The translations under genes were made by a program, and so were the position numbers. This document shows, piece after piece, positions 1,293 through 60,601 of a stretch of 64,000 nt of DNA. The stretch lies in NCBI GenBank assembly GCA_002633005.1, contig NMRA01000304.1:461200-525199 (forward strand), given 5' to 3'. Numbering within the stretch: position 1 is the stretch's first letter; the number at the start of each line of letters is the position of its first letter. The notes under the pieces were generated by a model. That model made no database searches and was not told the origin of the DNA. It was given only the letters and a program-made list of their open reading frames with translations. This stretch comes from Phoronis australis. Lineage: Eukaryota > Animalia > Phoronida.

Positions 1293-4200
1293 GGCTGTAC
1301 AATTTACGAGCTTCTGACATAGACTACAACCCCGTGTTTGTTGCCTACGCGATAGTCTTGAAGGATGAACTCAGGTAACATAAAGGCCGAATGTCTCGAA
1401 ATCCTACCCCAGTTTTGGAAAGAAAAATATTTTCCAAAACTCTATCCTTTTTGCCAGTTTCCATGGGCCTCTAACACTGTTAAAGCCCTTGGTTTGAAAC
1501 TATTTTATGGCGGATGTCGCAGTACAGAAATTGAAATTGTTAAAGCGTGATGCTTCTTCTCTTGCGTGTTTCTTGGAAAGTATTCACCCTATTGTCCTAA
1601 ACTGGTGATATTTCACTGCACATATCTGTGCTTATCATGCTTAGGCTTATGCATGGGTCGGGCGGGGGAAGTTTCACCCCTGTGGGGTTTAACCTGGAGT
1701 TTTCTGATTATCATTCATAGGCAGGCATTGAGTTAGTCCAACATTATGGGGGGGTCACTTGTAAGCACAACTTAAAAGTCATGTTGTAGAAGACGTTATC
1801 CTAAAAGAGGCCGGAACTACATGTTTCAACATTTTGATGTGAATTTTGAAAGTATAAAGGTTGGTTACTGACATCCACATATTCCTGTATAGTGCGCAGT
1901 ATTTTTCTTTTTTACTTTGAAAAGTAAAAAATTTTTAGTTCCGTAAAGCCCCACTGCAAGTGCTGTTTTTTGTGACGTCATTGAGGCTGTACAGAACAAA
2001 GAGATATAGGTCATTAGCCGTGGAGTACATAGTCCAGTCGACAGATCAACATGTCCATACTCACAATTTTTTATTTTTTTTTTTGTTCTTTCCTGTGACA
2101 TTGATTCATCCCGGGGCCTAGCCTGAGCCAGCAACTGTATAAGACTATCTTCAATGTACAGCTAGGTACCAGTAGCACTGTGTGTTGAGCTCTGTTAGGC
2201 TCCGAAATTTCACATAGCCCGGGTAGTTCTGCTCGTCACCTTGTCGTGAAACTTATATCAACGTGTAGAGCTATAAACCGGCCGGGGAGAGTGCAAATCT
2301 GGGTCTCAACCGACACTCACCTTGCCTGCTGAAATCGTTTAGTGAAAATCAATATTTTAGTAAACGTTATTTTATGTCATAATTCTCAGCCTTTTGTAAC
2401 AATCAAAACAGTGCGCTCAACATGCGCTTAATTTCTAAAATTTTGCGACATCTGTCAGGAGATGATGACAGCTTCGCAGGAGCAAAATTTTTTTATGAAA
2501 TTCGGTTTCCTGGTATTAAAATACAAAAAACTTGTAAGGAAATGAAGCTCTAATTATTGGTTGTGACATACACAACTTCGAAGAACAGTTCGATCGCATG
2601 TTATACTTGGAAGAAGAACAATTCGGGGAACGAAACTGACCAATAAGGCAACAGGTGACGGCGCCAAAAGCCGACCTTAAAGAGCGCACCCAAATTTTAG
2701 CAGCATAGTGAACAGCAGAACGCCAATTTTTTCAACGCTAGTAAATACTTTAGTTTACTCAAGGAAGAGTGTAATTTTTAATGACACTAATTTTGTGTCA
2801 GATTTTGTTTGATCAGGTTTTTACCCATGTCAGTGCAACGGCCGCTGTATATTTAGTATTACAGGTTGCACTGGCAAGGCTACGCAGTCGGTGCCCTTTC
2901 CTGCTTGGCCGCCAATAGTCAACACTACACGGCAGTAAACTTGTATTATGAACTTTGAGAGCTGAGATCACAGACGTTGTACACATTACAGCACAGTTCT
3001 GTAGCCGCAGAGAGACATTTACCCAATGAGTTTTTATATATAGTAAGCTTAATTTATCTCATTGCTATCACCTACGAGACAGCCACAGTGTTGTCAGACG
3101 CGCCTTAGCCAATAGAAATTAACATTGGAAAAACGCTTGTTTTACAAAAATGTGAAAGAATAACAAAGATGTGATTTCTGATATAGGCTTTTTAAATTAC
3201 ATTAAAAATGCAATCAGGAACCTTTTAAGGTATATTCCTGAATGTTTTATAACTTCGTGTTCAAGCCAGTCATGCAGCGCCGATATCGTCAAGATTGAAA
3301 ACCATTGCTTTGACATAATGTACTGCAGGGGAAAAGTTTGTCGTCGTTTTTTCAGTAATATAGCAATTCTTTACTTGTTCGGCACGCAATATGGCCAACA
3401 AGTGAAATTCTATTTTATCATGTTTCTGACAAAAATAAAGGTTAAGAAATTTGTAGTCTATTTCTAGAATAACGTGTAGATGTTATAAAACATTTGATAA
3501 AGTTTCCATTATTTGTAACAGAGCAGCCAACCTTTGAAAAACTGAAAAATTACAAGCTTGACAATTGTTTTCGTGCGTAATGTCTGGAGAAATTACAGTA
3601 GCATTGTTAAAAACATGATGAAACCATTGATTGAATAAAGTTCATGGATTGTTTCAATTGTGAGATTCACCTCCGCTAACATGATTTACATGTGACCTAG
3701 TTAGCAAGGCGGGGTCTTCCATGAAACTGCGTAGGATTAAACAGACATGTGGCAATGTGGTGACATCTTTATGAAAATATATGATTAGACATTGACATCA
3801 TTCCCGGACATTGAATTAAGTATAGCCCAGAATTTCCTGAACGAAACTAAAACGATGGAAAAAGAACTTGCGTTATGTTCAATGTCATCCAGCAGTAGAT
3901 TTAAATATACAAAAAACATAAACAGGACTGCCAATCATACAAAAGTGTTCAGTTGATTGTCTGGGAATGATATCGAGGACAAATCAAGGGCATCTATTTA
4001 TGATTTGAGTTGCTCATCAGTCACAGAGTTGTCAGGCTTGTCTAAAAAAGTTGTTTTTCAGTTAGACAACTGGTAAATCTTATTTTATAGTGTTGAACCT
4101 TATTTCCAGGGAGTGTACCACGTTCAGTCTTACATTAGAATTGTATTGGAAATGGTCAGTACTGTAGTGCTGCGATCAAACAACATATTGTATTTACTAA

Positions 4201-7200
4201 ATGTTCAGTTGAGCTCAAGCAGCATTCAATAAGCAGCCAATTGAAAAGCAGCATAATGCTGTTATGGTTTTATGAAGTGGACTTCTCTGGCTGGGCATCA
4301 AGCAGTATACCCTGGACACACTATTATCACCGGTGCTGTTTCTGCCCACAAAAAGGGTGAAACTCAGTGAAATCAGAAGTCTTGATTGTTCAGACTACTT
4401 TTATCTTAATGCTGTCGGATTAAAGTACTATAAAAAATAAGCGAGCGGAAAGAATTTAGGTTTTCTGACTTCCAGAGTTGCCATAATAGTTGCAGAGTTG
4501 CCCTCGTGCCAACTCTGGAGGGTCCGTCAGGAAAATATAATGTTATGGAAGTAAACAATATGCACAGTAATAAAAATACTCAGTGTAAGAATCGGGCAAA
4601 AAATACACATTTATCATACTCAAGACAATTGCACTTTAATTTTGTTAGTTCAGGACTGACTATTTTCTGTCATTTCTTCCACAACCATCACTTAACACAG
4701 CTGGTGACAAGTACTTCCAAAGGGATTATTACTCAAACTCTCTTTGCATATCTCTATTCTCCCCTTCGTTAATTATATGTTAATCTTATGTATCAGGTCA
4801 TTAGGCTTTTATAGCGACCATGCCACAATTTCAGGTTATATCTTGCCCCTAACCGTGTAACTCCATCCGTCCGCACACACCTCAACACTGGGGATGATGA
4901 TTCGTGCTCGGGAAGAAACGACAAATGTGTTCAAGTGAGTTGTTCATTTGAACCTGTGGCATGCTTCATTAAAAGTGACTTTTGAAGACTTTTCAGACAA
5001 AAATTTGGTCTTAGACTTCACGCATAGCTATTTCTGAAGAGCATTAAATCTCATTTGGGCAAAAGTGCAAAATCTGCACTTTAAGCGAATATACTTATAA
5101 CTGCTTGTTACTAAGATAATTTCTGTAATTTTTTTCTAGTAAGACCGTGTTGGGCTCAGAACTACTAAAGAAACCTTTATTCAGACATTGCAAAGTGGGA
5201 GCGTAAGATCAAATTTCTGTCTAAAGTCTTAAGGCACTTCCATGAAACAGACCCCCTGGGGTTCCATGGTTCTGTCCACTTGGATTTTCTCTCACTTTTC
5301 AAGTTATGCAAGTAACATTTTGATTGATGACAAAAGACAGTTAACCTGAGCCCGCATGTGTGTTAACTACCTCTTTAACATTGACATACTATGTTTTTTG
5401 TAGCATTTCTAGTAAATAAAACATAATTGAATGGTTACAATTTTGTGGTTGCTGTGCATAAAAGTATGAATTTTCTTACTAGTTGAATCTTGACTGCCGG
5501 TATTTGATTTCTTAAAACCCTGTTTGTACCAGTTGACTGATTTTTGCTACTGATTTACCTGATGCTTTGAGAATGCCAGAACGGTTTTGCAACTCTAGCT
5601 GATTAAGTTCACAAAGACAACGAAAATTGCATGATCTCAACTCAGTCCTCAGAGAGGCTGCGAGTGGCCACTTTCATATTGTAACAACAATTCTTTTAGT
5701 TAAAATACGTAACTATGCGTATCAGTTTTGCAAACTTTGCAGTAGATTGCTTCAAATGTTTACAAGTAAGCATTAGGTTCCTATGGTATTTCACTTTTAA
5801 AAGTGTTATTTCAAAGAGTGAGATGTTTAGTATTTTGTCGGGCTGTAAAAACTGGATTCAGTGCCTCTTTACATGCTGGAAGTTCTTCTGAGGGGTTTTA
5901 TGGCCAGTCACAACCTCATTTAGGTGTTTTTGTGGTGTCCAGTTGTTGTCTGTGTTGGAGGTTGTTGTTAGACAAAACTTAGGCACTGTGTTTATGATTG
6001 CATAGACAAAACCCAGACCTTATGTTGCCTGTGTTATCTGTTAGATTTTTTTGAGTTGTCAGTTCATGTTGCAAAATTGGATTTGTGGCAAAAAATGTTC
6101 TCGACCATTGTTAACAGTTTAAAATTCGGTCAACTCATAATCATGGTTTTGTGCTTTTACTTTGTGAATCCTTACTGGGGTTTTACCTGTACTGAAACTG
6201 TTTAGTCTTAAGGTAGCCGAGGTGGAAGTTACCATAGCAATTGCAAGCACAAGTGAAGTTCAGTTTGATTAATTGCTTTTTAGGAAGTGGATTTTAGCCA
6301 CTAAGGGTGTATGAAAACTGGCTTAGGGGGCTGAGCACATTCTGTAAATTTTTGTTTTTATTTCCAGATAATGCCCTATACTGCCATCTTCAGTGACATC
6401 AGTAATTTAAATAGAACGATTAGCAAGATCTGGATCAGCAAGCTTTCCAGCTATGGTTGTTACAGTCGAGTCTCTGAGGTATTTTATATTGTGTTCAAAC
6501 AGTAATTTTGACACGATGTTAAGTGACATGGCAGTGTCTGCCAACTGATGCTTTAGTCTAACTTGCTCGACCATATACATTGACAAGACAACAACTGAAG
6601 TTTAATTAAATTGTTAATGAAATCTCGTGTCCTCGAAAATCAGCGAAATTTGAATTTGTTGTTATACATGATTCACAGTTTTAAGGCAAGGTCTCACCAA
6701 TTTCAGTCAAAAATAATTGGCAAAATTGCACTTTTCCATTTTTCAACGTATTTTAACAATTTTTCAAGATATTGCCTGTTGGTAGCTATGGTACAGAATT
6801 TGGATATGACAAGCATAATTCTGGTACTGTGTATCATTTGTGAAAAAATTAAATTTCAACTGTTTGCCTTATTGCATGCTGAATTCAGGTGAGATTTTAC
6901 CCTGACTGCCCTCTAGTGGAAGGTTTGGTGTTTTGGTTTTACTATCTCTGAGTGATGTTTATTGGGCCATCCAATCGCCACCACATCATTTTTGACCCAC
7001 CCCTTTGTTGTGTAAAATGGTTGAAGCCAGAGCAGTCCATTAGTGGGCAACCTTTTGCATTTTGAAAGGAAGATCAACTCTATCAGTATACATGTTTGTG
7101 TTCAAATTGACTAGTTGTCAATTCAGTTAAGTATCTAATTTTCGTTTGGTGTTCCTTCCGGGTGTTTGCTACCACTGCAATGAAGGTAGTCAAATTTCGA

Positions 7201-10200
7201 TGAAATCTGTAGGTGATATTTTCAGGAAACCACTTTGTACGTGCACAGTATCAAAGAATGCCTCACAGATGCAATAGCGTTTAACTAAGATGATCAATTT
7301 GAACTGTTATTACACCCGTTTGTGTTCAGACAGGCAGTTGATATGGATTAAGATGATTCTGGTTTAATTTGCATGAGTTTACATATATGGGAACTTAATT
7401 GACAGAACGGGGTCAATTTAAACCTTGTCAAATTTCATAGGCTCTGGGTGCAAATCTAATATTAGTAACTGAATGATTGAATGTTAAATTTTTAAATCTT
7501 TTCTTTTCCTTTAAAGTGTTAGATGCCTTGGACTGTGAAAATATCCACCTGGATTTAAATTGGCTTTATTTGTTGTTGTTTGTGTTCATGTGGAGAATTT
7601 CTGGCTTACACTGGTTACCTCTCTGATTTCCTAAGCCCCAGACAACTTTTATGATCCCTATTCAGCACGCCCTTTGTATTGATGCAGATCTGAGTTAATG
7701 AAGTAGAAAGGTAATAGCTAGCACTACTTTCTTAACAATGGTGGTCCTTATTACACCTGAATTGTTTTTCACTGGCATTTGCACAGAGTTAAAGCCTGCA
7801 ATGTGGAGAGCAGTTTTAACTGGGTACATGTTAAATATTACAAAAAGACTAAACAGTTAATTTGCATTGATGTTGACAAAGGGACACTTCCCAAAGAAAC
7901 ATTGGTTTTAAATATGTTACATATCTGTTTTCATTACTTTATTTTAATACTCCTGTCTACTTGCTTTTTTTCTCACGGGTTAGGGTTGCTATCTTTTCAT
8001 TTTGTGTTTAAACGAAGCATCAAAACAACTTAGAAGTTGTGAACCCATCCCTGATATTTCCAGATTACAGCTACACCAAGCATGTCACAGCAAACAAAAC
8101 TCTTCGTGCCATTACTTCAAGTTCAATCTTTATCAGAACTCAAATCATAAAATATATACAAATGTGCAAATATGGTGATAGCCAAACTGAAGATTTGGAA
8201 CCTCTTGACAATTTTGGTTGCAGTAACTACATAACTATTCTAGCTTTTTCTCAGTAATAAAAAATGAAATCACAGCTCTTGCCCACCAACCAACCTCACC
8301 CACTGCTTACATTCTCTCGTCCACTTAAAAGCTTAAGCCATCTATAATAGTTGCCTTCACAGGTGTTCCATAACAACTACAAGCTAACTATCGAAACTGG
8401 CGCATTTCCGCGAATAGCAGTTTTCCAGTTAGTGTACTACTCCTGAAGTAAAGTAGTTCGGCATGCACCCGGCCATAAGCGATGTTTTAAAAATTATTGA
8501 CATCTACATGTCGTGAACACATCCACTAAAACAAGAAACTGTAGGAACACCGCATTTATCCACCTTCACTCTTATCAGGCTTCTATTGTGAGTCAGCATG
8601 CGTGAATAATTGGCTGATAAGCCACCTCTGGAACTACTTTGGGCTGAATGGATGACCAGGCCATAAAATGATAATTAGCCAAGACCAGTTATTATAATGC
8701 AACAAAGAACAAGTAATAATGTCTTGCATCACCTAGCCTTGGTGGAAAGCTGTATACTGTATTGGCTCAAACAAACGCNCTCTTCGTGCCATTACTTCAA
8801 GTTCAATCTTTATCAGAACTCAAATCATAAAATATATACAAATGTGCAAATATGGTGATAGCCAAACTGAAGATTTGGAACCTCTTGACAATTTTGGTTG
8901 CAGTAACTACATAACTATTCTAGCTTTTTCTCAGTAATAAAAAATGAAATCACAGCTCTTGCCCACCAACCAACCTCACCCACTGCTTACATTCTCTCGT
9001 CCACTTAAAAGCTTAAGCCATCTATAATAGTTGCCTTCACAGGTGTTCCATAACAACTACAAGCTAACTATCGAAACTGGCGCATTTCCGCGAATAGCAG
9101 TTTTCCAGTTAGTGTACTACTCCTGAAGTAAAGTAGTTCGGCATGCACTCGGCCATAAGAGCTGTTTTAAAAATTATTGATATCTAATTTAGTCACTGTG
9201 TGTTGTTCATAGATGTTTCAATGTAGCTTAGTTGTATATTAAAAGAATAATCCACGTGATATTGTTAACTCTGATCATCGAGTACATCAATACGCACATT
9301 TGTTTAATCATACCTAATGTTTGTAGCTTTTAGCTTAAATTGATTTTTAAAATTCGAAAACCAAACTTGGTTGTTTTTTTTTCCATCTGAATACAGCTGT
9401 GGTATTTGTTTTTAATAACTGTTGGTTAATGCATTTTGAAAATTCGCCAGTATGTACAGGCAGAGGTGTTTACTACAGTTTATGGTTGAGTAATTACACT
9501 TAATTGGGTCTTGCTTGCACCGGACAATGCAGTCATCGCAACTGAGTACGATTCTGGCGTCACGCTCACTTTGAACCCTGTAAAAGCCGCTCAGAAGGAC
9601 GAGCGTTGAAAAGTCACGCATATCTTTAGAAATGTGTGACTTATGTGTAAGCGTATTCTTCACGGCATGTACATATTTGTTTTATATGAATGTGAAAAAT
9701 CTAATTTAACTGCAAAAATTCTCTCATTTTGATGTAGTGATTTGCAACCATAGGTGAAAGCAATTATTGAAAATGACTAGATGATACATAATTTGTGCAA
9801 TTCTTCTCAGGACAAACTCGTGTCTAGCTACTCTCCTATTGCCTTGATGAAGGCGATGAAAAACTCCGTAGAGAGACAAGGAATGGCAAACAGTCACGTA
9901 AGTGTCTGTTACACATCCGTGATGCTTTACTTGTGCTGTTTTAGAAAATTCCGTTTGTCATTTTTCACTTCTTTTATATACCATGATCTGTGATAAGTTT
10001 TGAAATGTTTCGACTCGAAGGAAGATGGCTGTTCAGTTTTGATGTGTAGTTTTAAAGCGAACGCTTTATTATTCTAAAGGTGTGCGCTGTTGTGCTCTTA
10101 TGTACAAAAAGTTCAAAATAGGTTAAAGTCAGTTTTTATGGTTTCCATCACAAAATGATGGTGTTACTTCTTTTTTGGCCTTAAATAGCCTGCGCTAAAA

Positions 10201-13200
10201 AAGTGTCTTATATTTTTATAATATTTCATTTCTAAAGCAAATTTATAAATGTATTTGTTTGGTATTTGTTTTGCACCAGGATATTTACTGAAAAATTACA
10301 GTAATTTTTCTATTGTTTAAGGCCTGCCACTTTTTCGTATAAATTGTTAATTAGTTACAAAGCATTGTGTTAAGACTTTTTAGTCTTTATGAAATCCCAT
10401 ACAAGTTGTTACAGTTTTCTCGACTATCATTTTGCTTTCATTTTAAAACTCTATTTTGTCATAGCCTATGATGCTTAAGCGAACAGTTAAAAAACAATTC
10501 CTAATATTGTTTTGAAAAGCACTGATTAAAGGATACTACCAGTAAATGTTTTAGGCGAGTCAGACTAATCATTTCTATGATGTTCCGATGTTTTTTAAAT
10601 TTCTACACCTAACCTCAATGAATGAATAACAATAATCGTGCTGTTTTTCTCCAAGGGAGTTGAAACACTTTACAAAAAGAGCCATAACAGATTGTTTGTG
10701 ACAATATGATCGTGGTTTTGTTTTTTTAGGTACGCGACGCAGTTGCCTTGATCACTTTCATGGCATTTTTGGAAAAGGAGATTGAAAGTGGAAAACGATA
10801 CACAGAGATGTCTGCAGCTGCTAAACTGAAGGAATACAGAAGGTAAGACTTACTTTACGACAGCATCAACAGCAGCAGCAGCAGCAGCTGCAGCAGCTGC
10901 AGCAGCACAAGTTAAGGTTGTGTAAGAAACTAGGAAAATGTCCAAATTTGGTAATTGTGGAACATCACATCTCAGATTCATATGAAACTTTCACAACGTA
11001 GGGTTTATGCACTGTTTTCTAAATTGCTGTAAGTCACCTTTAAAATGTTTCACTTTTTCCTGGGGTTGTACAAAGAAGACTCAAAAGTTGCATAAAATGA
11101 AAACAGAATATTTTAGAAAACTCAGGTAACAGCATTTTCGAGATTGCATCTTGAATGTTTATAACAAGTGAAATTCGTATATGTCATTGATGTTTTGCTA
11201 TGAGTGTACCCATCTTGTTTGTTAAAATTTATTTAAAAGACATTGTCACATGACCTAATGAGTGACAGATAGACAACAGATAAACATTTAAGTCTATGTG
11301 CTTTCTACTTTCACAGACTTAATTTGGTCAAATGCACTGACTTGTTTAATTAGGTAATACATGATCTTAAAGCAATACTCTAAAATTGTGAAGAAAGAAA
11401 CAACCAAAATCAGGTTTAAGAGGTCCCTTGCTAACAAACTACAGGTAAATGTTTTTAGATTTTCCAGCAATGATGTTTGATGATAGAAATCAAAATAGGA
11501 TGGGTGGGGGAGGTGCAGCTGAGATCAGGCGTGGGGAGGTGGAAACTGAGGGCTGGGTCAAGAAAGAAAGATGAGAACTGGAAAGTTTTTGAACACCTGC
11601 AATAATGTGGATTGTGGATCATGACCACACAGGTGTCACAACCAGTGCACAGGGAACATATACTACATCCATGTTGCAGTCATACAGAAATGGCAGAGTG
11701 GTGCGTGTATGCTAAACCCAACCAGCTCATAAGGCAATTTTATTATGATAGATGGTCCCGAGTAACTTAAGCTCAACCACTTGGGACTGTTAAAATTCCT
11801 TAACAAACAATAAAATCAGTTGGTCATCCATATGATTTCACACTTTAATGATATCTCAAACCTTATTCATGAAAATTGACCGTTTTTATAATATTTCACA
11901 TGTCAAGCAACATGCCTTATCTTCATCCTCGGGGAACTTCAAGTGCGAAATATATAGCATGTATCAAGAAAAAAAGATTTAGCGCAACCACCTTCAAATT
12001 TGTTTACCACTTCTCCGGGGTCAAAGGTTACAGAGTTGTCACTCAAAATCGAATCTCCTGGCGCCAGGCCTAGAGCAGTTCTATATGTACCCTTAGTCCT
12101 TTCATTCACCAAGTCACCATAATACTGAGTCAACGAGGTATATATAGCTTGGAAAGATGCCATGGAAAACGAAGATAAAGCATTCATCAATCTCAAAAAC
12201 ACTGTTAGGGTTTTCTTTTCAAATACCTAGTTTTTGCACACCGTAAAACAGATGAATAAGCTACTATTTTTTACAAAAATATGTTGCGTTCTGCGAGTTA
12301 AGTTGGCGTAGAAACAAAACTAATTGAGTAACCGAAAATTCGAATGTTTTTGAGGTAAATTATGAAGTTTTCATTAAAATGGGCTTTAATTCTTTAAAAT
12401 CGACCGATGGGTTATTTTGCTATGAATGTACCTTTCTTGAAGATGAAATTTTGACTCAAAAAGGTGGTAACGTAATAATTAAATAAAACATAGTTTTATA
12501 ATCTATGATCATTTATCTTTCAAAATATTTATACTTTTGCTAGTTGACACAGCCGGTTTTTTGATAATTATACAAGACAGAATGAATAAATGACTATATA
12601 AGGTTTGAGATAACCTTAAGCTCACAGTGACAATAACTTAATAGTGGCCTAACACAATCAAAACATTTTGTTTTCATTTTTCTGTCTTTTGATACACTCA
12701 AATCAGTAATTAAAAACAGCATGTCCAGGTGTGATGGTCCATAAAGTCACCATCCTTGAATTTTGGCTATTTTGCATTGCTGGTCTGTATTTGTGATAAG
12801 TTTTCTTGCATGTGATGTTTTCCATACCGTAGCAAACAGGCTAACAACATGGGACTGAGTTTTCCCTCCATTTCTTCTGTTGGTTCCAACGGGGCCATCA
12901 TTCACTACAAACCGACGAAAGAGACCGATAGAGAACTGACCACAAAGGATATGTACTTGCTGGACTCTGGTGGACAGTACTTGTAAGTGGTGGTCAAGAT
13001 ATGTTGAGATTTGGCAGAATGAATTTTCATAGCAGGCACCGTTAAATAGTGTAGGGAATTATGCTCAGATTTGTTAGGCGTTTGGACTTTTGTAGCCATG
13101 AAAGTGAGATCTTGCAACTGAAGTTTCCATTAGTTCTGGATTCCAATTTACAAAACTCATTGAAAGTTCAAAACTTGTAGCCATTAATTTTGAACATTAA

Positions 13201-16200
13201 GGTGCTTTTAATGTCTTTCATTTTGTGAATGCTTAAAAATGCCTAAACTTATGTCTGAAAATGTCAAAAAATTAAAGTATCTAAATTTGTTTTAAAATTT
13301 GTTTATTTATTATTTTATTTGCTCTCTGGAGTTGAATCTTATTTATTTCATAATTCCTTGAATTCATTGTATTTTGTTGTTTTCCATGTTGGTCGGAGGT
13401 GTATTGAATTATTTCTCGTACCTCCTGGAAACCAGAAATGATAAATTTTAATGAAATAAATCAAATCAAGTAGCATTTCCTTTTTAAGTGCTGAAAGTCA
13501 TACTGGCCTCTTTAGATACAGTAAGATTAACAGAAGTCAAACATACACGTGGAAGAATCTCATAAGTTTCAGACAAAGCATAATTGCCAAAACTGCATTT
13601 TTTCAATTTTCAACTGCTTCTAACGTTGTGAAAGCCCAAAAGTGTTTAAAATATTGTCTGTTGGTAGCTTTAGTCAGGAACTTGAATACGGCTTAATGGT
13701 ACTGTGTATCATTCATGAAAAAACGAGACCACAGTTTCACCTGTCTCCCTAGTATGGCATTGTGTCTTTTAAGACATAAAAATTGGTGTGACTTTACCGT
13801 AAGTCATTTTTATTGGGAAAAATACCGCTGTTTTGCAGTACGGTTGTTCCACTTTGTGCACTCAATCCTTCGGATGAGTTGGATACTCATGTGAGATCTC
13901 TCAGTGCGGTAGGACCTGACTTATGCGAATTTTACTGTATTTGATTGCTGACGCATTGAAGCTTGACTTTCAATTATTTTCAGCTGTACAGTAAAAATCT
14001 GGCTCACATTATGATGGCCAGGAGAAATTTCGTTTTCTTGTTTTCTTTTCCATGAAAGTTATTTACCACCTAATTAACTGTATTCCATCTTCCATCTTCC
14101 TAGTGAAAATATATGCTGCAACCAGCAGATAATATTTTCATAAACTGTGCACATCTGTAACAACGCTAAAAGGCTTTGAAAATGAGAAATGGGTAATATT
14201 GGCAGATATCGGTGAGATGTTATTGTAACATAGCTTTTGAGAAAAAATTTTATACAGACATTATGGACTAAATTGTTTGTTGTAATACCTGACGAAATTG
14301 GTTGTTTCTCGTTATTCTTTTGCAAAATGATTGTACTTCAGGTCAAAAACTTAATTCTGTTTGAGCATTGTATCTACAGTCTTTGCGATACTTTCACAGT
14401 GACATTGTTCTTACTTATGCAGGGATGGAACGACAGATGTGACGAGAACTTTTCATTTTGGCACACCCACAGACTTTGAAAAGGTATGCTCTGATTGTAC
14501 AGGATGGGATGAAAATCTAGCAGAATCGAGCGTTTTTGAGAATCGAATGTCATCTTGAGCATTCATAATTACATTGCACTTACTGCGAAGTCGGTGGCAA
14601 GTTTTCTCCTGTGTCGATTGGCCCGAGTTTTGCTCACTATGATTGGGTACAATCAGACGTGGCTTGCATCAGCACTTCAGGTTTTGAACCCGAATTCTTA
14701 GCAAGAGACATTTAATATGCTGTCCAGTGTTAAGTTTTAAATTCGCACTTTCACAGATGGGACAAAGTTATCTTTGCCTTCGTCTTGAGGAAATACATTC
14801 CAGCAACTTTGAATGAAAAAATAAACATCCAACTCTGAGAGGAGTTTCATTAATTTGAAGAGTGAAAGTCGCAGAACTAGCACAATGGGTTCTTCTTGTA
14901 AAACTGCTTTCTGGAGAAACTTGACATCACAGATGTTTACTTTGTTTAATTAAATTAAGCACAACACCTGATTCATACAGAAATTGTGTAACTCCAACCA
15001 GCTCTTTTGGCCTCAGGAGAAAACTTGACTACGGAATATGATTTTCTTTATTTTTTTGTATGGTTCTGAAATGTTCATACTATAAATTTGAATACAGAAA
15101 TTGATAAACATAATGTGATGAGTAATCGTAAAGTCATTAACCATTCCCTAGACACAATTTTTAGTTGTAACTGTCACCCATGGAACAGTTTAGCCAAATA
15201 CAAGTAATTTAGTTCATTTTAAAAATTCCATCCACCATAAGCTTCGAGTACTTCTTTAATTTTCCAATTCTCTTTAGGAAGCCTATACCCTCGTTCTTAT
15301 GGGCTCAATAGATCTTGCCAGGGCTGTTTGGCCTGAAGGAGTTTATGGTAAGGTCTTGTTTGGCTGTACTTTGTCATGATCCCGGTGTGTGTTTCACTAT
15401 GACTCCATTCTTTTGCACAAAAAGATGCGTGCCAAAATTGTTACTTTTTTACTTTTCAAAAGCTGTCTACCTTCCTGTAAATAATGGAAACTATCAAATG
15501 TTGTTTTAGGACACCTACACAGTACAACCTTAATGCATGTAGTAAACTAAAATGTTATTAATTTTTATTTCGTGGAGACATTTGACAAAATAAATTTCAC
15601 TAGTCAGCAAAGTTTTGTGCTAGGAATTAACTGTTAGTGATGTTAATAAACGGACCTTCAGAGGGGTTTCAGGTCATTATCTTATCATTGTGTCTGAAAA
15701 CCAACGATTTATTACATAACCACTGATACTTCTGTCCTATGATTGGCTGAAACACAGTTATTATTTTTTGTAGGAAATATGCTAGATTCTAACTGTTGAT
15801 CTCTTCACTGTTACTGCAGGTCGTGCCATAGATGCCTTTGCACGTGGTCCGTTATGGAGGGCTGGATTGGACTATAGGCACGGGACAGGGCACGGTATTG
15901 GTCACTTTCTCAGTGTTCATGAAGGTAAGCGAGGCTAAACTTAGTAAATTAGTTAAGGTATGAGGTTAAACTGAAAGTTAGTTGAGTGTTAAGGAGCACA
16001 TTGATAATAGTTCTTGTCATTTAAACTCATGACTGGGTGTTTAATTCATCATTAACAGTGGTCAGGATGCAAATTGGGAAAATATTTTATGACGAGAAAT
16101 GTGTTTTCTCATAATTTAAGGTCAGTGTCTACCTTTGTTACTAAACATTTGATTTTTTTAAAATAACTTTTGAACTATTAACAGTAGACTCATAAAACTA

Positions 16201-19200: not shown

Positions 19201-22200
19201 ATTTGACTAAATAGAATTTCACTTGTAAGTCATATTGCGTGCTAAATAAGGGACGAATTACCGTACGTTAGATTTTAATCAAGTAAGCCCCGACGACTTT
19301 TTTCATATGTTATGATAATAGTTAACTGTGTTGTTCAATTTTCAGTCGATAACTAACTTTCGTGCTGCTTCAGTTCTCCGTGCATGATTTAAATCTTACA
19401 CACGACTGGATAAATCTGGTATTCCTTTATCACTGACGTAAGGTTGTGAGTAATCAGTTTTGAAAATCTGTGCCCTCAGCTAATAGTCCGCAAATGAATT
19501 AATATTCCACTAAAAGATTATATCTTCTGAAAAAAGAATGTGCAAAACATTTTGATTTGGTCTTTATGCCAGTATCACATTGATTTGGTCACTTGAGCAT
19601 GTCTCTTTTGTAAAATTTAGCAAAATACAATCATCACTTTTACCAGATAACAAAACAGTTATATAACTCGAACAATTTTATGCGCCCATTTATAGGTATG
19701 CGGGTGCACTGTGGCGTCATTTATCTCTATCCGACGTCTGCTACTTTATGGACAAAATCCCTTGATGGGTGTTTGTGAAATTTTGCAGACAATTGCTCCT
19801 ATCATGAATGGGATGGCACGGGTGAATTTTCAGGCAGATTTGACTATTGCTGTGCCTCCTAGTGGCAATTTCATTTTTTTACATGAGCCCGTATATCTAT
19901 ATCTACTGAGTTACTTGACGGGTGTTCGTGAAATTTGGTAAATAGGTTTCAGTTAAAGAGACAACACTACACCTTCCTGTATTGGCAACATTATCTGTGG
20001 CCCGCAGTGGCCGTTTTTATTATTTTTGCATGCCTTTATCATCTGCCTCTGTCTGCCAAACCAATCGTATAAAAGAATCATTGTAAACGTTGACAGATGT
20101 TTTCAGTCCTATCAAAATGAACATGGCTGACATTGATTTTCCGTTGGGTCCATCTACTGTGGCGCCCCCTGTGCCTGATCTACCAAGTTCCATGTTGTAT
20201 CTTTGGACAGTCTGTGCGTTTCAATTGAAAAGATCATGGCTGGCATTGATTTTGGACTGTTAGACTGAACTGAGGTGTTCCGTAGCGGCAATTTAGGCTT
20301 CTGCATAATTATAGCTCCTGCGGGGGCTGCCGGGATGTTCATGAAGTTTGGCTGTGAGGAAGAGACACCTGACTTCCGTAATTGTTTCAGACGGATTCAG
20401 CTTATATTACACCTGGCTTTTTATTATTACTATTATTATGTCTGTTTTTGTCGTCTGTCTCCTCATCTCCCTTACAAAAATGAACTTAAGTTTTCATCGA
20501 AAAACTTAAGTTTTTGGTCTGAAAAACTTAAGTTTTCATTCCCGAAAACTTAAGTTTTTGGCGAAAACTTAAGTATTTTGGAACAAGTTTTTTGGAACGA
20601 ACTTAAGTTTTCATAACTTAAGTTTTTCAAAAACTTAAGTTCTGAAAACTTAAGTTTTTCAAAAACTTAAGTTCGTTCCAAAAAACTTGTTCCAAAAAAC
20701 TTAAGTTTTTGGAAAACTTAAGTTTCAGAAACTTAAGTTTTTGAAAAACTTAAGNAATTATAGCTCCTGGCTGCCGGGATGTTCATGAAGTTTGGCTGTG
20801 AGGAAGAGACACCTGACTTCCGTAATTGTTTCAGACGGATTCAGCTTATATTACACCTGGCTTTTTATTATTACTATTATTATGTCTGTTTTTGTCGTCT
20901 GTCTCCTCATCTTCCAAACTGCTCGAGTATCACCATGAAAAGTAGCGTGTGCTTTCTTACTGACAATATTGTTTTCGGATAAATTTGACTGTGATAATTT
21001 TTTCAGGTTGCTTTGATATCTACTAACATTTTTGATTGATATTCATCATGTTTGACATATATGTTCATATTGAGGAGAGCAAAGTTGGTGTTCTCCCTCT
21101 AGTGGGAATATTTAAAATTATCATCCCTTGGATCTGTGCTGTTGCAATGCACACTGGTGACGCTCAGCATTTCTCTTGTTCAACTCTGTTGCCTTATAGT
21201 ATTGGCCTCTGTGAAAAACGGTGGTCACAGGCAGCAACTTGTTTGGCTTGCATATAAATCTTGGACGTATGTGATGTATAAAATTATACCATTTCTACAG
21301 TTTCGTGATCAGTGACAACCCCTTTATACATCTGCAGGTCCAGCACGTATTCGTATTGGCTACCGTCCAAATGAACAGCCTATCCACGTTGGCATGTTTT
21401 TCTCTGATGGTGGGTGATGTCAATGCACACAAACTATTTGCATGTCTAGCAAGCTTCTGTAGGCACTGCAGTCTGACCTGTTGTAGCATTGCATCTAGTC
21501 ATCCCAAGTTGCAATTAACCTGTCTGTGTGCTCTACTTCATCACATTCAAACACCAAAACAACAGAGCTTAAAGTAGCCTCAGTTGAGAGTCACAGTAAA
21601 TGGTTTTACCAAAACATATTGGGTGTGCAAAATGAAATCTGTGTGCAAAATGAGTGGAGATTTAGCATACTCCGAATAAAACTCCATTAAACCATGTCAG
21701 GGAAAGATGCAAATCATCTTTCACCATTGAGAATATGCCTGCAGGCAGCGGCTCTACCTGAACTTATTGTGGCCAATGACAAACAAGTTACCAACAACCA
21801 AATGCGAAAAATAACAAAAGACACAAAAGCAATTAGCACCAACACCTCGTGCCCATTCTGCAACTGTGTTACCCTGCAAGTTATAGTTATTAGTTTCTCT
21901 CCTCACTCGGCCTGGTTTGGTTTGTTTAAATTTTGTTTGTCGTTAGGTCCTTCCTCTATTGGTCAAGGTTATTCACCAAGCCAAGAGCCTTTGCTGGTTG
22001 GAATGTTTCTGTCAGATGGTGGGTATGATCCTTGTGGTCTCGTGGAGAATAAGCTGTCTGAGGAAAGTTGAGATCAAATTGAACTGCTTTTGGGTTTGGA
22101 GCTTGAACATTGTCCTGCTCCATCCAGACTGCCAAGAAGTGGTGAAATTTGGCTGACTTCATTAAGTACAAATTAAGGCCACTGTGTAAAAATGCTTCAT

Positions 22201-25200
22201 AGTTCTTATCTGGAAAAATTTAAGGTGGATGGAGAAAAGGGTCGGTCAACTTAACTGAGTTAACTTTCTCCACGAGACGCGCGTAGCTTTATTAATGCCT
22301 TCCCACATTGAACTTACTCTCTGATGGCTTCTATGAAGGATATTTATAAAAGCTATGCAGCCATTGGTCTCTGCTCACACCGTGGGAAAGACATGTTCAG
22401 CCAGTTGGCTCTGGCGTGTCTATGTCTGATGAGGTGGCACTCCTAATACTCTGTGCGCTTGCTCACGACACTGACTTTGTGTGTATAACTTACCCCTACA
22501 TGCACTTATTTAAAGCCATAGACAACGCCATAGGTGAGTCACCATCAATATAAGTTAATAATTAGTACGGGAGCACTCAAATGATGCAGAAATTTGATTG
22601 GCAGTGGAAGCGTTTTACAGATATGGCCAGAAAATTGAGATTTTCAAGTTAATTTCATTTTCGATTTCAGCATAATATAAGTACAGGACACTCAGTTTTG
22701 TGTGTATGAAAATGCTGACGTGTTGCAAAAAATGCTCAAAGACAAGGTTACTGAAGTGTGACTGCATATTGCACTTCAACAGTTACTTTTACTCTAAATA
22801 ACCCGTGCTATTTAGGATCTGAATTGCATCAACTACTCATTTGTTTACCTTAATTGCCGTCCACACAGAGACGTACTCTAGAACAAGTTTATCCTGGAAC
22901 GAGTTGTCTCTAAGTTTTGGGAGCAGAGTGAGTGTCTGGACACTACTTAAACTATAGTACAACTTACCCGACTTGTGGCAACTTACTCCTTACCTTACCC
23001 AGGTACTGTGGCAATAAATATGTACAAAAACGTGAATTGAGTTGAAGTATGATTATACCTGTTGCGTGGCGAAGACCTTTTTGTTGTGTTTGGCTTTAAT
23101 GATTTCCCTTTCTGCACTGGCCTATTCAGCTTTTACTGCATTTAAGTACTCAGCCTCACGATTACTCATGTAGTATTCTTCAATTGGAGTTTCAATTTAC
23201 TCAAAGGCCCTGTCTACATCGGCACCAAGGCTGGCAAAATCGTTGATCAGCCTAGCCTGCACGTAGGCATATTTCTGTCTGATGGTAAGTTGTGCGACAT
23301 GCTTCTCTGCGATGCTGAAAACCGGTAGGTACATTAATGTATAGACCTGTTACAAGTGATTGACACCAATGCGCTATTTGCCTGGATTACCAATAAAAAA
23401 TCACTGGTTTCAAGTTAGGTGTTGGGGGCGAGCAACCTGACCAGAACAAGTAAATACTTGGGAGATGCAAGAAGTAAATGAAAAAACACAGGTTCGGTAT
23501 AAAAAACTTGCATTGATCACAGCTTTGCGACTCGTGTTAACTTGGTAGACTAGGACACAAAAGTGGGACTCAAAATGAGTGATTTCTTTCTCACTTTTTA
23601 CGAAAGAGATAAAGTATTATGTCAGTATCGTTACTGCTACTGCCGTCGGACAATATTTTGAAAAATTTCAGGCAGTCAAAACAATAGTAGAAGCTACTGA
23701 AAAATGAAAAAGGGCAACTTTGGTAATTATTTTTGTCCAAAAGTGTAAAATTTTACAGTGAGTGTATGAATTTTGCCAGGTGGTGGATCAATTTTCAGTA
23801 GACATGCATTCACAAAGGTGTATGGGAACTTTCAAGAAACTAAAACCAAATGTGGAAGTTAAAAAGTGAACTTTCGGAAATTGGGAGTGGTAATTACTAT
23901 ATCCAGCCAAACTTGAGACTTCAGTAATGCAGACAATTTCATTCACAACAAGACATTTTTAAATGTCATGTTAAAACATGACCGTTTTGAAATCTATATT
24001 TTTGCGTTAAATCGAGTATCAATTACATTTGTATGCATTTTCTGATTTCCTGTGATAGCTAATTGCTTGTTTGGTCTTGACTGGTATCTTTCGCTATTAT
24101 GCATAATTTCTGGTTGCTAGACGCATAAATTTGGGTTTTCTTAAGAACGTGCAAATTAGGTAGCTCTGTTCACTCCACATAGAATATTGTGTGAATTAAG
24201 CTGTCAAAATATTGGTAGGTAGAGACACTTATTGGTTGCTTATCTGCACCAAAGCATCAATTGCTGGACGTAGTTAACGTGGGTTATGAGATTGTTAGAA
24301 ACCCTTGGGCAGTGAAAAATTGACAATTTGGCAATTATGCTTGTCCAAAATCGGTGACTACGGTAATTCTACAGTAACAGCAATGTTTGTTTAAAAGTAG
24401 CAACAGCTTTGAAGATATTTTGAAAGATTCTCAGCTTAGTCATGAGTTGGTTAGTCTTGAGACTGGAGCCATTTCAAGATAGTCATTGGTGCAAAAGCAT
24501 TGCTTCTACTAGGGTGATTTGTAATGAGTAATATCTTGAAATCCGGCTGTAGTTTACTGTTTTTTCAATAACTGTTGCAGCAGTTTCCATTGTACAATTT
24601 CTGTTTCTTTTCTCTTGCCAGAGCCCGGTTATTACGAGGACGGAAAGTTTGGAGTCCGCCTGGAGACCATAGTAGAAGTGGTGAAAGATAACACTAAGGT
24701 GCAGTCAGACAATTGATGTGTAAATTTTCATGTCTGCTAAAATTCCACTCGTCCTCTTTTATCACAGAAATTAACTTAGAAAGTTCAGAAGTTAATCAAG
24801 CATTTTTGTGCCCCCACAGACTTCTTGATATCTCAAAAACTTCTGGTTGGATTTTGATGAAATTTGGCACAAGGGTGTAGGCCGTCACTAGAAGGGTTCG
24901 ATTCATGCTACTTTTCAATCTGCCTCGCCCCCCCCCTTGGGTCAGAGCGGCATAGCTTTGTCTGTATTTTTGGGGAAGAGCATTTCCGGGTGATATCTAG
25001 AGGATGGATCGGCAGATTTCAGTGAAACTTGACACAAAGGTTTGTAGTATCAATGCGCCTGCATGTTTAAATCGTCAGACGGATTTGATTACTGCAGCAC
25101 CTCCTATTGGCCATTTTGTTTTCAGTGAGGGACTTTTCAAATTGTTTGGGGAAGCGCATTTCCGGATGATATCTAGAGAACCGATTAGCGAATTCCAACA

Positions 25201-27235
25201 AAACTCAAGACTGTTATATGATGATGTGCCACTATCATTTGATTTTCGGTCAGTTTCGACCACTGCAGTGCCTCCTAGTGACCATTTTGTATGAGCGTTT
25301 CCATATGATATGTGGAGAACCGAGTGAAGGATTTCAATGAAAGTTGACACAGAGGTTTGTGATAAGAATACGTCAGCACCATTAAATTTTCAAGCAGATT
25401 CGACCACTGCAGCACCTCCTTGTGGTCATTTTGTTTTCAACATGGGCATTTCAAATGTTGCTTTGGGGGAAGAGCATTTCCGGTTGATATCTAGAGAACT
25501 GATAGGTGGATTCCAATGAAACTGACGCAGAGTTAGGTATATGATGAGATTGCACTTGAACACCATTTGATTTTCGTCTGGATTCGACTACTGCAGTGCC
25601 TCCTACTGGCCATTTTGTGTGAGCGTTTCTGGATGATATGAAGAGAACTGAGGGAAGGATTTCAATGAAAGTTCATAGAGACGTAATTGTTTGGACAGTG
25701 CAACGGCACCATTAAGTTTCCGGGTGGATTTGACCACACACAACATCGCCATTTTGTTTTCGACCTGGGCTTTTGAAGTTTTGTTTGGGGGAAGAGCATT
25801 TTCGGATGATATCTGAGGAACCAATAAGTTCGTCCCAGATTGCACTGCAACAAGAATCTCACTGTATTTACCCACAATGATGCCCTAAACACTCCTCGCG
25901 CACATTTGCTACATTGTTTTGCGTGCTATTTGTTGTCTGATCCAATACAAGTTTTTCTCGATTGCATTACTCTATTCGTCCTTCCAATGCCAATGAAGTA
26001 TTATGGCTGTGCTGTGGGCTGCAAATCCAACATGAGAAAGCTTGATAAACTCACTGGACAAATAAATACCCATGGATGCGGGATGTGAAATTCTTCACCT
26101 TCCCAACATCAATGATGCTCTTTCTGTATTTTGGTGCTAATAGTTTCTGCCTGCAGTTATGGTGGGTTCCTGAATGTGCTTTATCCTTACGAAATAATCA
26201 TTCTAGTGCTTACAACATATTTATACTTTGTGAAGCCATGGGTGATGAAATAGGCAAAAAAGTCCATTGACTTGGCTGCATCTGAAGTATTGTAAATGGC
26301 AGGACAGATTTCTAAAGAAATAATGAATAAATAAAATATAAAGCTATGGTACAGTGTACTTGATTAAAATATTTCCGACTTTGCGAAGCAAAATGACTTC
26401 TTCTGCAAGGGGGACGAGGCTGTCAAGGAAGCCAGTTAAGTACAAATATTTTAAGCAAACATGACAGATTTCTGTTTAATAAATATACTGTCTGAATTAT
26501 GACAATTTACAGTCATTCATTTGTTCAAATTTTGCTGTTATATTTCAGTACCGCTTTGACAATATGACGTATATGACGTTTAATGCCATCACTCTAGTTC
26601 CATTTGAGCCCAAGCTCATTAATCTAGAAATGCTGGACAGGAAGCAGGTAGGTGGTCAGTGTGAAGCAGGTATGTAGTCACCATGATGCAGGTATGAGTG
26701 GTCAGCATGAAGCAGGTATGTGGCCAGCGTGAAGTAGGTGTGTGGTCAATGTGAAGCAGGTATGAGTGATCAGCATGACACGAGATACAAGGCCAGTGGC
26801 CTAAATTCATTAGCCTTATTTGTTGATTAAATGACAACATGTTTACTTCAAGTTGTTTAAAAACAAATAATTGTCAAGTCTTGGGCTTATTTGCGTCAAT
26901 TTGCAATTGTTACGGACCTGACACGTTCCTCTGCTCAGTGAATGCGTGTATGATTTACGAATCTTCAAGTCAACATGTCATTGCCTTTGTGGTATACCTT
27001 AAAAGAGTAATTACCTCCCTTGTATTTTTGTCTCTAGCGTTCTTGGCTTAATGCTTATCACAAGAAATGTCGTGATGTAATCGGGCCACTGTTAACTGGT
27101 GATGCCAAGGAATGGCTGAACAAGAGGACGAAACCTGTAAATATTGACCCGAATATCTCCAGTTCCTCCAACTCTGTGAAGACTACTATTGGTCTGTTCT
27201 GCCTGTGTTTTGTTTTGTGTTTTTACAAGAACTGA
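1293..27235 (+). CDS. XPNPEP2: Xaa-Pro aminopeptidase (aminopeptidase P, M24B), XPNPEP2-like with a predicted GPI anchor; 5' part lies upstream of the window
   Basis: Phase-consistent AG/GT exons translated by hand: 1293-1374 ([22 protein letters not shown]), 4835-4934 ([12 protein letters not shown]), 6368-6478 (IMPY..KIWIS), 9811-9897 ([15 protein letters not shown]), 10730-10842 (VRDAVAL), 12833-12982 ([23 protein letters not shown]), 14423-14483 (DGTTDVTRT), 15278-15347 (EAYTLVLMG), 15820-15924 ([18 protein letters not shown]), one of three alternative exons, 24622-24698 ([15 protein letters not shown]), 26549-26647 ([10 protein letters not shown]), 27038-27235 ([26 protein letters not shown]). 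All five M24 metal ligands (D,D,H,E,E) are present. The symbol means 'most like', not proven orthology. Confidence 0.93.
4953..5258. mobile_element. Palindromic MITE
   Basis: Ends are imperfect inverted repeats over about 60 bp (..cttcattaaaagtgacttttgaagacttttcagacaaaaatttggtctta / taagatcaaatttctgtctaaagtcttaaggcacttccatgaaac..). Confidence 0.6.
7560..8240. repeat. Dispersed repeat; diverged inverted copy at about 52900-53650
   Basis: Colinear matching blocks, e.g. 7590-7725 with the reverse complement of 53480-53615, and aaatatggtgatagccaaa (about 8168) with tttggctatcaccatattt (about 52965). Confidence 0.65.
10861..10907 (+). repeat. Intronic (CAG)n microsatellite
   Basis: cagcatcaacagcagcagca... 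starts 19 nt after the donor at 10842. Confidence 0.85.
11849..12615. mobile_element. Non-autonomous DNA transposon with TTAA TSD (Kolobok/piggyBac-type target)
   Basis: ttaa|tgatatctcaaaccttat ... ataaggtttgagataacc|ttaa. Confidence 0.7.
16120..16818. mobile_element. About 700-bp fully palindromic MITE with TTAA TSD (Kolobok-like GG..CC ends)
   Basis: ttaa|ggtcagtgtctacctttgttac ... gtaacgaaggtagccagtgacc|ttaa; arms pair to the centre (aaaaatcaagactt / aagtcttgattttt). Confidence 0.85.
17016..19156. mobile_element. 2.1-kb foldback-type element with TIRs and inverted subterminal arrays of a 20-21-bp unit
   Basis: TIR ggtggcccgaaagtatcatcg / cgatgatactttcgggccacc; arrays of GGTGGAAAYTATTT(T)CA(A)CCYR at about 17075-17315 and the reverse complement at about 18640-19100. 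Confidence 0.9.
19676..21180 (+). mobile_element. Degenerate Helentron-type non-autonomous element (HINE/DINE-1-like)
   Basis: Starts ttttatgcgccc, has internal cctcctagtggc units and ends ..gacgctcagcatttctcttgtt; same ends as the copies at 33658 and 56801. Confidence 0.55.
20469..20754. repeat. Tandem array of the palindromic unit AAAAACTTAAGTTTTT
   Basis: More than a dozen copies of aacttaagt; ends at the N at 20755. Confidence 0.9.
21338..21409 (+). CDS. Aminopeptidase P alternative exon A ([25 protein letters not shown])
   Basis: tctgcag|GT..GATG|gtgggt; 72 nt, phase 1-1; joins VHE-G to E-PGYY in frame. Confidence 0.88.
21947..22018 (+). CDS. Aminopeptidase P alternative exon B ([25 protein letters not shown])
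   Basis: ttttgtttgtcgttag|GT..GATG|gtgggt; 72 nt, phase 1-1; homologous to exon A. Confidence 0.88.
23207..23284 (+). CDS. Aminopeptidase P alternative exon C ([27 protein letters not shown])
   Basis: tttactcaaag|GC..GATG|gtaagt; 78 nt, phase 1-1; homologous to A and B with two extra codons. Confidence 0.85.
24803..25934 (+). mobile_element. Degenerate Helentron-type element with internal tandem units of about 120-180 bp
   Basis: Starts tttttgtgccc; recurring gagcatttccgg(a/t)tgatatctagagaac and actgcag(c/t)(a/g)cctcct(a/t)ntg(g/a)cc blocks; ends ..ctatttgtt. Confidence 0.55.
25987..26108 (+). pseudogene. Frameshifted THAP-domain N-terminal remnant, probably transposon-derived
   Basis: [21 protein letters not shown] then, in another frame, [15 protein letters not shown]; resembles the THAP C-x2-4-C ... 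FxFP start. The rest of the domain is missing. Confidence 0.45.
26641..26778 (+). repeat. Minisatellite (22-24-bp unit, about 6 copies) amplifying the exon/intron junction
   Basis: Unit gaagcaggta(t/g)gtggtcag(c/t)(a/g)t; the first copy overlaps the donor at 26647. Confidence 0.85.
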
Positions 27236-37830: not shown

Positions 37831-38295
37831 TGACTCGGGCTATACCGAATAGATTTCAGTGTACGGCGGTGCTCCGCGGCGAGATATTAGCTACTGTTGG
37901 CCTGCGTCCAGAACTACATACCGTGTTTGTCCTACACATACTCCGTAATCAATGATATCGTATGTGACCCCAACTAATCTTGAGGGCCTAAACGGCAAAA
38001 TGATGATTGTTGACTAAGACCCGGTTTTGTACGACCTACATTTCACAGCTGCTGTCGTAACATGGATTGTGGGAGTGGGCGTGCACCGGGAATCGTGCGC
38101 ATCTTGGACTATCTATGGGGCGCATAGACTTGTCGCATCGACCGGGCTCGTGGGATTAGTCAGATACATCCTCGCTGGTTCCGTGCGTTTCTGATTGGCT
38201 GGTCGAATTGTCAACAAGTAGCGCTTTACGTAAACAAGCTGGCACGACTGATGGAGGAAGTGTAAATGTGAATACTATAGTTTGTGGTCTGTTGT

Positions 38296-60058: not shown

Positions 60059-60177
60059 CCTGTTTTCCCTTCCGATCGATGTTTCAAGTAACAGCTGAAA
60101 ACCGAGGTTTAAATGTTCTTAATATCAACTTCGTCTCACCTTTGCGACGATTCTGCATGTTTCACTCAGATTCTGTG

Positions 60178-60467: not shown

Positions 60468-60601
60468 CATAGTGTCTGTGTGAAGCATGTAGTATCGCGA
60501 CAAGCAAGTGTCGACGTTTATAGTGTCACGAAACGAAACAATTTTTCAGTACCACTTTCACTAGACGGCAGTGTACACTCGACTTGAAAGCGGAACAAAG
60601 A

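Follow-up and report, generated by a model that had tools for sequence, protein, structure and literature searches.

Alternative copies of an active-site loop exon in a predicted aminopeptidase P gene of Phoronis australis

Exon copies A, B and C and their splicing

The window analysed here is a stretch of 64,000 nucleotides from Phoronis australis (assembly GCA_002633005.1, contig NMRA01000304.1, positions 461,200 to 525,199 of the forward strand). It contains a gene on the plus strand, which extends from upstream of position 1293 to a stop codon at 27235 and in which 12 constitutive exons and three candidate alternative exons were located. As judged from its sequence, the gene is an M24B aminopeptidase P of the XPNPEP1/2 type, and Xaa-Pro cleavage is predicted for its product. 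The candidate alternative exons, designated A, B and C, are located between the constitutive exon ending at 15924 (e9) and the one starting at 24622 (e11). Splicing was assessed in 4 runs from 2 studies, namely X1, a contig set presumed to be RNA, and X2 to X4, raw RNA runs of one study with the same species label, about one fifth of each of which was read. "Position 4" refers to the fourth residue of the encoded segment.

21338..21409, plus strand: alternative exon A, 72 nucleotides, Arg at position 4; in X2-X4, 89 reads across the upstream junction and 95 across the downstream one; own contig in X1
21947..22018, plus strand: alternative exon B, 72 nucleotides, Ser at position 4; in X2-X4, 106 reads across the upstream junction and 129 across the downstream one; own contig in X1
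23207..23284, plus strand: exon C, 78 nucleotides, Tyr at position 4, two residues longer; intact, 20.7 bits in the profile scan, no junction listed

The three exons are homologous and intact: they are in phase 1 on both sides, are preceded by AG and followed by GT, lack stop codons and have lengths divisible by 3. Inclusion of any one copy alone results in an open frame through the windowed part of the gene to its stop. The frame is also kept when all three copies are skipped or when A and B are included jointly; nonsense-mediated decay therefore cannot be what separates the copies. The window was scanned with a splice-site-aware profile derived from 131 homologous segments, which was applied to 774 candidates on the plus strand and 705 on the minus strand. 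Exons A, B and C scored 40.1, 35.2 and 20.7 bits, respectively, while the best unrelated candidate in the window reached -0.7 bits and the best of 300 intron shuffles 8.5 bits. Splice sites, frames and profile scores thus bear out the original prediction, made from the DNA letters of this window, that three intact homologous phase 1-1 exons lie at these positions. It had also placed a split codon for a metal-binding Glu at the downstream intron, and indeed this codon is interrupted there as G|AG. With a plain hidden Markov model omitting the splice sites, C scored 7.2 bits, which is within chance, and C is accordingly the most diverged copy. The net charge of the loop part is +2 in A, -1 in B and +1 in C. 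No further intact copy was detected in the window by the profile scan, the intron before A containing an N. A candidate decayed fourth copy between B and C (22357-22431) was rejected, as a correctly placed donor is lacking and nhmmer gave no significance (32 of 90 scoring shuffles, out of 200). The same stretch is the best local match for A (equalled by 16 of 200 shuffles) and for C (7 of 200).

Reads were aligned at 96% likeness, and a joint was listed if supported by at least 3 reads from 2 start places. The resulting joint table comprises six rows, none hidden, of which two are non-splice artefacts near 20500 and four are splice joints. Read numbers in X2, X3 and X4, respectively, were 24, 16 and 49 for e9 to A, 27, 20 and 59 for e9 to B, 27, 13 and 55 for A to e11, and 35, 21 and 73 for B to e11. 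In total, 419 junction reads link A or B singly to the flanking exons, and the sums for A and B agree with the neighbouring constitutive junction e8 to e9 (58, 39 and 111 reads). In X1, separate short contigs were found for A and for B. No joint of A to B, A to C, B to C or e9 to e11 was detected in X2-X4 at the threshold of 3 reads per run, which leaves room for rarer events. As no A-to-B, skip or C joint reached the threshold beside the four A/B splice joints, A and B are mutually exclusive in the sampled RNA. The count of junctions from 15924 over the copies to 24622, proposed along with the original prediction, hence returned A and B singly, and joint inclusion of two or three copies in tandem, named there as evidence against exclusive splicing, was not observed above the threshold.

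For C, no junction reached the 3-read threshold in any of the 4 runs of the 2 studies and read depth corresponded to the intronic background, i.e. usage of C is below a few percent in the sampled RNA. As C was not seen spliced, two enzymes rather than three are shown at the RNA level: the idea of one gene producing three peptidases through mutually exclusive splicing of three exons holds for A and B and lacks a junction for the third copy. It may well be, and we regard this as the strongest of the alternatives although it falls somewhat short of even odds, that only A and B are used and that C is silenced or decaying. The gene would then produce two enzymes, which is compatible with our interpretation of A and B given below. 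Besides the missing junctions, this explanation accords with C having the lowest profile score and the weakest acceptor of the three (AAG, pyrimidine fraction 0.57). Against it, C keeps its frame, both splice sites (the donor is the consensus GTAAGT) and the C-terminal strand despite strong divergence of the DNA. Moreover, Mya, Lingula and gastropods have annotated isoforms with a copy of the aromatic type, which is conserved between Mya and the metagenome locus L013, and the RNA sampling covers about one fifth of three runs with tissues unspecified. C would then be a rare or tissue-restricted third choice beside A and B. The donor of A and B is the non-consensus GTGGGT (21410-21415 and 22019-22024); both of these exons are expressed, and GTAAGT is found in the copy not seen spliced.

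How is the joint inclusion of A and B prevented? Exclusion of the OGDH 4a/4b type involves a very short spacer intron, or a branch point near the upstream donor combined with a long AG-free zone. In the window, the spacers measure 537 and 1188 nucleotides and contain 31 and 69 AGs, respectively, with AG-free zones of 51 and 15 nucleotides before B and C. With such long spacers and so many AGs, the window does not fit steric or distant-branch-point exclusion. Competing RNA pairings are a possible mechanism. A hairpin over the acceptor of B folds no better than chance (z -1.27). The metagenome locus L003, with spacers of 29 and 31 nucleotides, likely uses steric exclusion. Two further features of the introns were recorded. 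A perfect 13-nucleotide inverted repeat (22037-22049 and 22266-22278) starts 18 nucleotides past the donor of B. At about 16115-16822 and about 17090-19100, the intron before A contains nested inverted repeats and two arrays of a repeat of about 20 nucleotides in opposite orientation, which are probably mobile elements.

The encoded protein and exchanged exons in other animals

The constitutive exons are listed below; residue numbers refer to human aminopeptidase P1 (hAPP1).

1293..1374, plus strand: constitutive exon, first recognised in the window; splice sites and frame, outside read coverage, gene starts upstream
4835..4934, plus strand: constitutive exon; splice sites and frame
6368..6478, plus strand: constitutive exon; splice sites and frame
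9811..9897, plus strand: constitutive exon; splice sites and frame
10730..10842, plus strand: constitutive exon; splice sites and frame
12833..12982, plus strand: exon e6, His395 and Asp415 equivalents; Pfam Peptidase_M24, 35.2 bits; single copy here
14423..14483, plus strand: exon with the Asp426 equivalent; frame, loose read ends before 15276 match the exon
15278..15347, plus strand: exon e8, Gly462-equivalent loop; junction reads, single copy here
15820..15924, plus strand: exon e9, upstream constitutive exon, His485, His489 and His498 equivalents; junction reads
24622..24698, plus strand: exon e11, downstream constitutive exon, Glu523 (split codon) and Glu537 equivalents; junction reads
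26549..26647, plus strand: constitutive exon; junction reads
27038..27235, plus strand: last coding exon, Ser-rich spacer and hydrophobic C-terminal tail; junction reads, hydropathy

The score of e6 exceeds the Peptidase_M24 cut-off of 23 bits, and the homolog matches carry PF00557 and PF16188. The A, B and C isoforms each retain the metal ligands and catalytic histidines, namely D415, D426, H489, E523, E537, H395, H485 and H498. The alternative exons are located between the His498 and Glu523 equivalents, in agreement with their predicted position between an active-site His and a metal-binding Glu. The nearest database matches of the protein are invertebrate aminopeptidases P with a tail, the best one being that of the chiton Liolophura sinensis with about 58-59%. 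In a quick tree of 58 rows, from which the exchanged segment was removed, the gene falls outside the cytosolic XPNPEP1 clade with a support of 99 and is otherwise unplaced, also relative to vertebrate XPNPEP2. Near the C-terminus hydropathy climbs to 3.0, following a spacer of small residues. The hydrophobic tail is a probable glycosylphosphatidylinositol (GPI) signal, and GPI anchoring is predicted from this tail.

To assess occurrence of the exchange elsewhere, the member lists of 30 protein clusters were compared at the level of isoform proteins, exon structure being deduced from swap limits that match the exon ends in the window. In 8 of the 30 clusters the focal segment alone is exchanged between annotated isoforms. 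These cover nine named species, i.e. a brachiopod (Lingula anatina, three versions), molluscs (Mya arenaria, Littorina saxatilis, Pomacea canaliculata, Babylonia areolata), sea urchins (Strongylocentrotus purpuratus, Lytechinus variegatus, L. pictus) and a hemichordate (Ptychodera flava). For Nucella and Elysia, the gene models wrongly join two segment versions in tandem. No swap was seen in 10 clusters (corals, jellyfish, cuttlefish, lamprey, spider, abalone and three unnamed), a weak negative as these contain few isoforms. Two segment versions in Acropora follow species rather than isoforms and were not counted. The Darwinula protein P0090 is devoid of the focal segment, its His-Glu motif being joined directly to the next exon, which probably reflects a missed small exon.

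Genomic copies were sought by scanning metagenome contigs with a pattern for the Arg-type exon, which slightly favours loci with several Arg copies. The pattern matched 17 loci, of which 12 are without aminopeptidase similarity and were dropped as chance matches. All five genuine loci, as determined by tblastn, carry tandem copies in the same phase with AG/GT ends: two in L003, L008 and L013, and three in L012 and L014. They represent about three independent cases, since L008, L012 and L014 look related. The best named match of L003 is Artemia (57%), and the second copy of L013 corresponds to the Mya isoform of aromatic type. When L012 is compared with L014, the ratios of synonymous to non-synonymous codon changes are 9:1, 10:3 and 3:2 for the individual copies, adding up to 22 versus 6.

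According to position 4 the copies can be sorted into Arg, Ser and aromatic types. Arg is probably the ancestral residue, because coral proteins carry Arg or Lys there. The original prediction had regarded the copies as old, selected variants. Descent of the three from one ancient event is not sustained by the exon trees, which suggest that the focal exon was duplicated several separate times in animals, possibly alongside an older class. In a tree of the 26 exon columns most forks remained open, while the copies of caenogastropods, of L003 and of L008/L012/L014 each grouped by lineage (support 82-94). That the three classes instead date back to a single duplication in the bilaterian ancestor, with copies kept or lost by lineage, appears improbable, albeit several observations speak for it. 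Window exon B is closest to the Ser-type copies of Lingula and urchins, pairs of Arg and Ser copies occur in protostomes and deuterostomes alike, and the Arg-type copy comes first in the window, in L012, L013 and L014 and in the Nucella model. However, when position 4 was masked, pairing within the same class beat cross pairing in only 4 of 6 cross-phylum comparisons (window, urchin, Lingula and Ptychodera), with a margin of one point in one of the four. The mostly lineage-wise grouping in the exon tree likewise disfavours one ancient triplet, although 26 columns resolve little and gene conversion could give the same pattern.

Exchange between isoforms also affects further exons of the catalytic domain. 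The segment equivalent to e6 is exchanged in Mytilus, Mya, Ptychodera and Glandiceps, and the e8-equivalent segment in Mytilus, Crassostrea and three scallops (three versions each). All four combinations of e6 and e8 versions occur in Mytilus trossulus and M. galloprovincialis. The proteins are the following:

e6/e8 swap proteins (bivalves, hemichordates): P0135-P0147, P0122/P0123, P0202/P0263/P0264, P0217/P0265/P0266, P0229/P0269/P0270, P0048/P0155, P0172/P0244, P0176/P0247

In the compact gene of L003, two copies of e9 (31-nucleotide spacer) and two copies of the focal exon (29-nucleotide spacer) are adjacent to each other (L003 2097-2349 and 1573-1769). In the window, a search for additional copies of e6 and e8 gave none. 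Each of these exons carries residues assigned to the substrate pocket in structural work. Exon e6 contains the residues aligned with Phe378, Ile381 and His392 of C. elegans APP-1, which contact apstatin (PMC4404410). Exon e8 ends in the loop of hAPP1 Gly462, which is given as the equivalent of Tyr617 in the S4' subsite of the Plasmodium enzyme PfAPP (PMC13100289). Exon e9 carries hAPP1 Leu484, part of the S4' N-loop (PMC13100289).

The exchanged loop and substrate preference

The alternative exon corresponds to hAPP1 residues 500-522, and position 4, which is Arg, Ser and Tyr in A, B and C, respectively, aligns with hAPP1 Gly503. This residue, Ser658 in PfAPP, is the sole difference in S2' between the human and the Plasmodium enzyme, and Tyr506/Pro661 belongs to the C-loop of S4' (PMC13100289). 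In C. elegans APP-1, the two final residues of apstatin are directed towards loop 505-509 (PMC4404410), which falls within the exchanged segment in our alignment. Arg370 of PepP and of PepQ binds the substrate carboxylate and sets peptide length (PMC5723419, PMC4213023). The role of the loop on the S' side, including that of E. coli PepP Arg370, which the original prediction had named, is thus supported by PMC5723419, PMC13100289 and PMC4404410. When proteins were divided by a crude rule into those with and those without a tail, 63 of the 105 distinct segments in the first group had Arg at position 4, and 28 of the 46 in the second had Gly.

As structural representative of the window isoforms we used an AlphaFold model of a Ser-type Lingula isoform, which has a mean predicted local distance difference test (pLDDT) score of 92.2. 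It matches C. elegans APP-1 (4S2R) with Z 47.4 and a root-mean-square deviation of 1.4 over 598 aligned residues and also matches human APP1. Confidence dips locally to pLDDT 85 at residues 571-580.

Because position 4 aligns with the S2' residue Gly503 and the following loop lines S4', the A, B and C isoforms likely differ in substrate preference, and a specificity switch on the S' side is the effect we would favour. The enzyme would be anchored in the membrane and act on extracellular peptides. In A, the Arg side chain would extend to the P2' residue or a free carboxylate, with a resulting preference for short or acidic products. With the Ser of B, the site would remain open to longer or bulkier peptides, and in C an aromatic wall would be formed by the Tyr. 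Taken together, we propose, with a probability of roughly 0.6, that a tandem-duplicated exon is spliced one copy at a time to yield isoforms which retain all catalytic residues, differ in the S2'-S4' loop and likely possess different Xaa-Pro preferences.

Several points weigh against this proposal, in addition to the absence of C junctions. The A share of the A and B junctions was nearly constant in the three samples of one study (0.45, 0.41 and 0.44 in X2, X3 and X4), i.e. no regulation was visible. In PfAPP, the C-beta of Ser658 is about 6.3 Å away from the P2' ring and makes no direct contact (PMC13100289); the longer Arg or Tyr might touch the ligand where Ser658 is too distant. Replacement of the corresponding loop in P. 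aeruginosa PepP left activity towards a small reporter unchanged and altered cell invasion (PMC5723419). Finally, some relatives with two copies have Arg in both (L008, L012, L014). The PepP exchange and the Arg/Arg pairs would fit splicing that is exclusive and has little effect on substrate choice, the copies rather tuning stability, dimer contacts, pH or partner binding, or being near neutral. The loop is moreover disordered in C. elegans APP-1 (PMC4404410), which together with the confidence dip in the Lingula model points in the same direction. We nevertheless consider this explanation unlikely: the residue differing most frequently between copies is the very one published as S2' position, the other exchanged exons likewise carry published subsite loops and the copies in L012/L014 are under purifying selection.

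Beyond the proposed switch at the focal exon, and held more tentatively, the gene for membrane aminopeptidase P of invertebrates could be a hot spot of repeated exon duplication centred on the substrate pocket. Four exons contributing to S1, S2' and S4' would be exchangeable depending on the lineage and give rise to combinatorial peptidases, in which an Arg/Ser/aromatic switch at Gly503 would set peptide length or P2' preference.

A fault in assembly or annotation as the source of the three copies, such as a duplicated haplotype or a fragment of a second gene, has a negligible probability and is refuted for A and B by the junction reads: although an N and, near 20755, duplicated sequence are present in the intron before A, the divergence between the copies is too large for haplotypes, reads join A and B each to the same flanking exons, and independent genomic loci exhibit the same layout. 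Duplicated stretches flank single Ns (8779 and 20755) at about 7980-9190 and 20310-20915, an arrangement typical of unmerged contig ends.

Related systems and neighbouring genes

Pyruvate kinase M and ketohexokinase are known cases of such exon switching. A close parallel is provided by exons 6a and 6e of coq-2 (PMC7434440): as in the present gene, homologous mutually exclusive internal exons remodel the substrate site of an enzyme, they occur in several invertebrate phyla and are absent in mammals, and single versus repeated origin is unsettled. In contrast to the aminopeptidase, coq-2 has two such exons and a proven switch of product between ubiquinone and rhodoquinone, whereas here there are two or three copies in a peptidase of which further exons are swapped elsewhere. 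In mrp-1/MRP1, as summarised in PMC7434440 from Yue et al. 2017, exclusive exons were also gained independently in several lineages; this protein is a transporter, while here the exchange involves four or more different exons belonging to a single catalytic domain. Tandem duplicated exon substitutions in human and fly (PMC9741552) belong to the same class, and orthologous genes have often acquired them convergently. Neither XPNPEP nor aminopeptidase is mentioned in the main text or one supplementary file of that paper, the gene tables of which may lie elsewhere.

With human APP1 (3CTZ), C. elegans APP-1 (4S2R/4S2T) and PfAPP (5JQK), the enzyme shares fold and metal ligands. The present gene product has a hydrophobic tail and exchangeable loops, whereas each of those enzymes has a single invariable loop, in which Gly or Ser occupies the place of position 4. 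In the vertebrate XPNPEP1 and XPNPEP2 proteins examined, the segment comes in one version. In E. coli PepP (Arg370/371) and PepQ (Arg370), an Arg located between the His and the Glu of this segment binds the substrate carboxylate (PMC5723419, PMC4213023), and the likeness to the Arg of exon A is one of analogy only.

Targeted literature searches, with subscription papers and fly exon databases outside their scope, located no published account of exon swapping in this gene, in line with the original statement that no description for XPNPEP genes was known. The variants are already present in RefSeq as unnamed isoforms without comment. Exon switching of the coq-2/mrp-1 kind is already known, and the aminopeptidase P case is a real, well-supported new example of unusual breadth. 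Through aminopeptidase P, bioactive and collagen-type peptides lose their proline block; the preference of this enzyme beyond proline is known mostly from inhibitor structures. Since the isoforms are identical except for one loop, they form a naturally occurring series with which the S2' to S4' sites can be tested directly. The gene is also a further example of an enzyme in which active-site exons were duplicated repeatedly in different animal phyla.

Elsewhere in the window, two tandem, intron-split copies of an amidohydrolase gene are located on the minus strand (28600-29178, 37414-37839, 40626-41264 and 49249-49599). The C-terminal part shows likeness to the "putative deacetylase EF_0837" type in the Atlas, with bacterial clusters being nearest, which is no proof of gene transfer. 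Two divergent, apparently intronless open reading frames follow at 59276-60118 (minus strand) and 60524-61375 (plus strand), each with two HSP20/alpha-crystallin domains.

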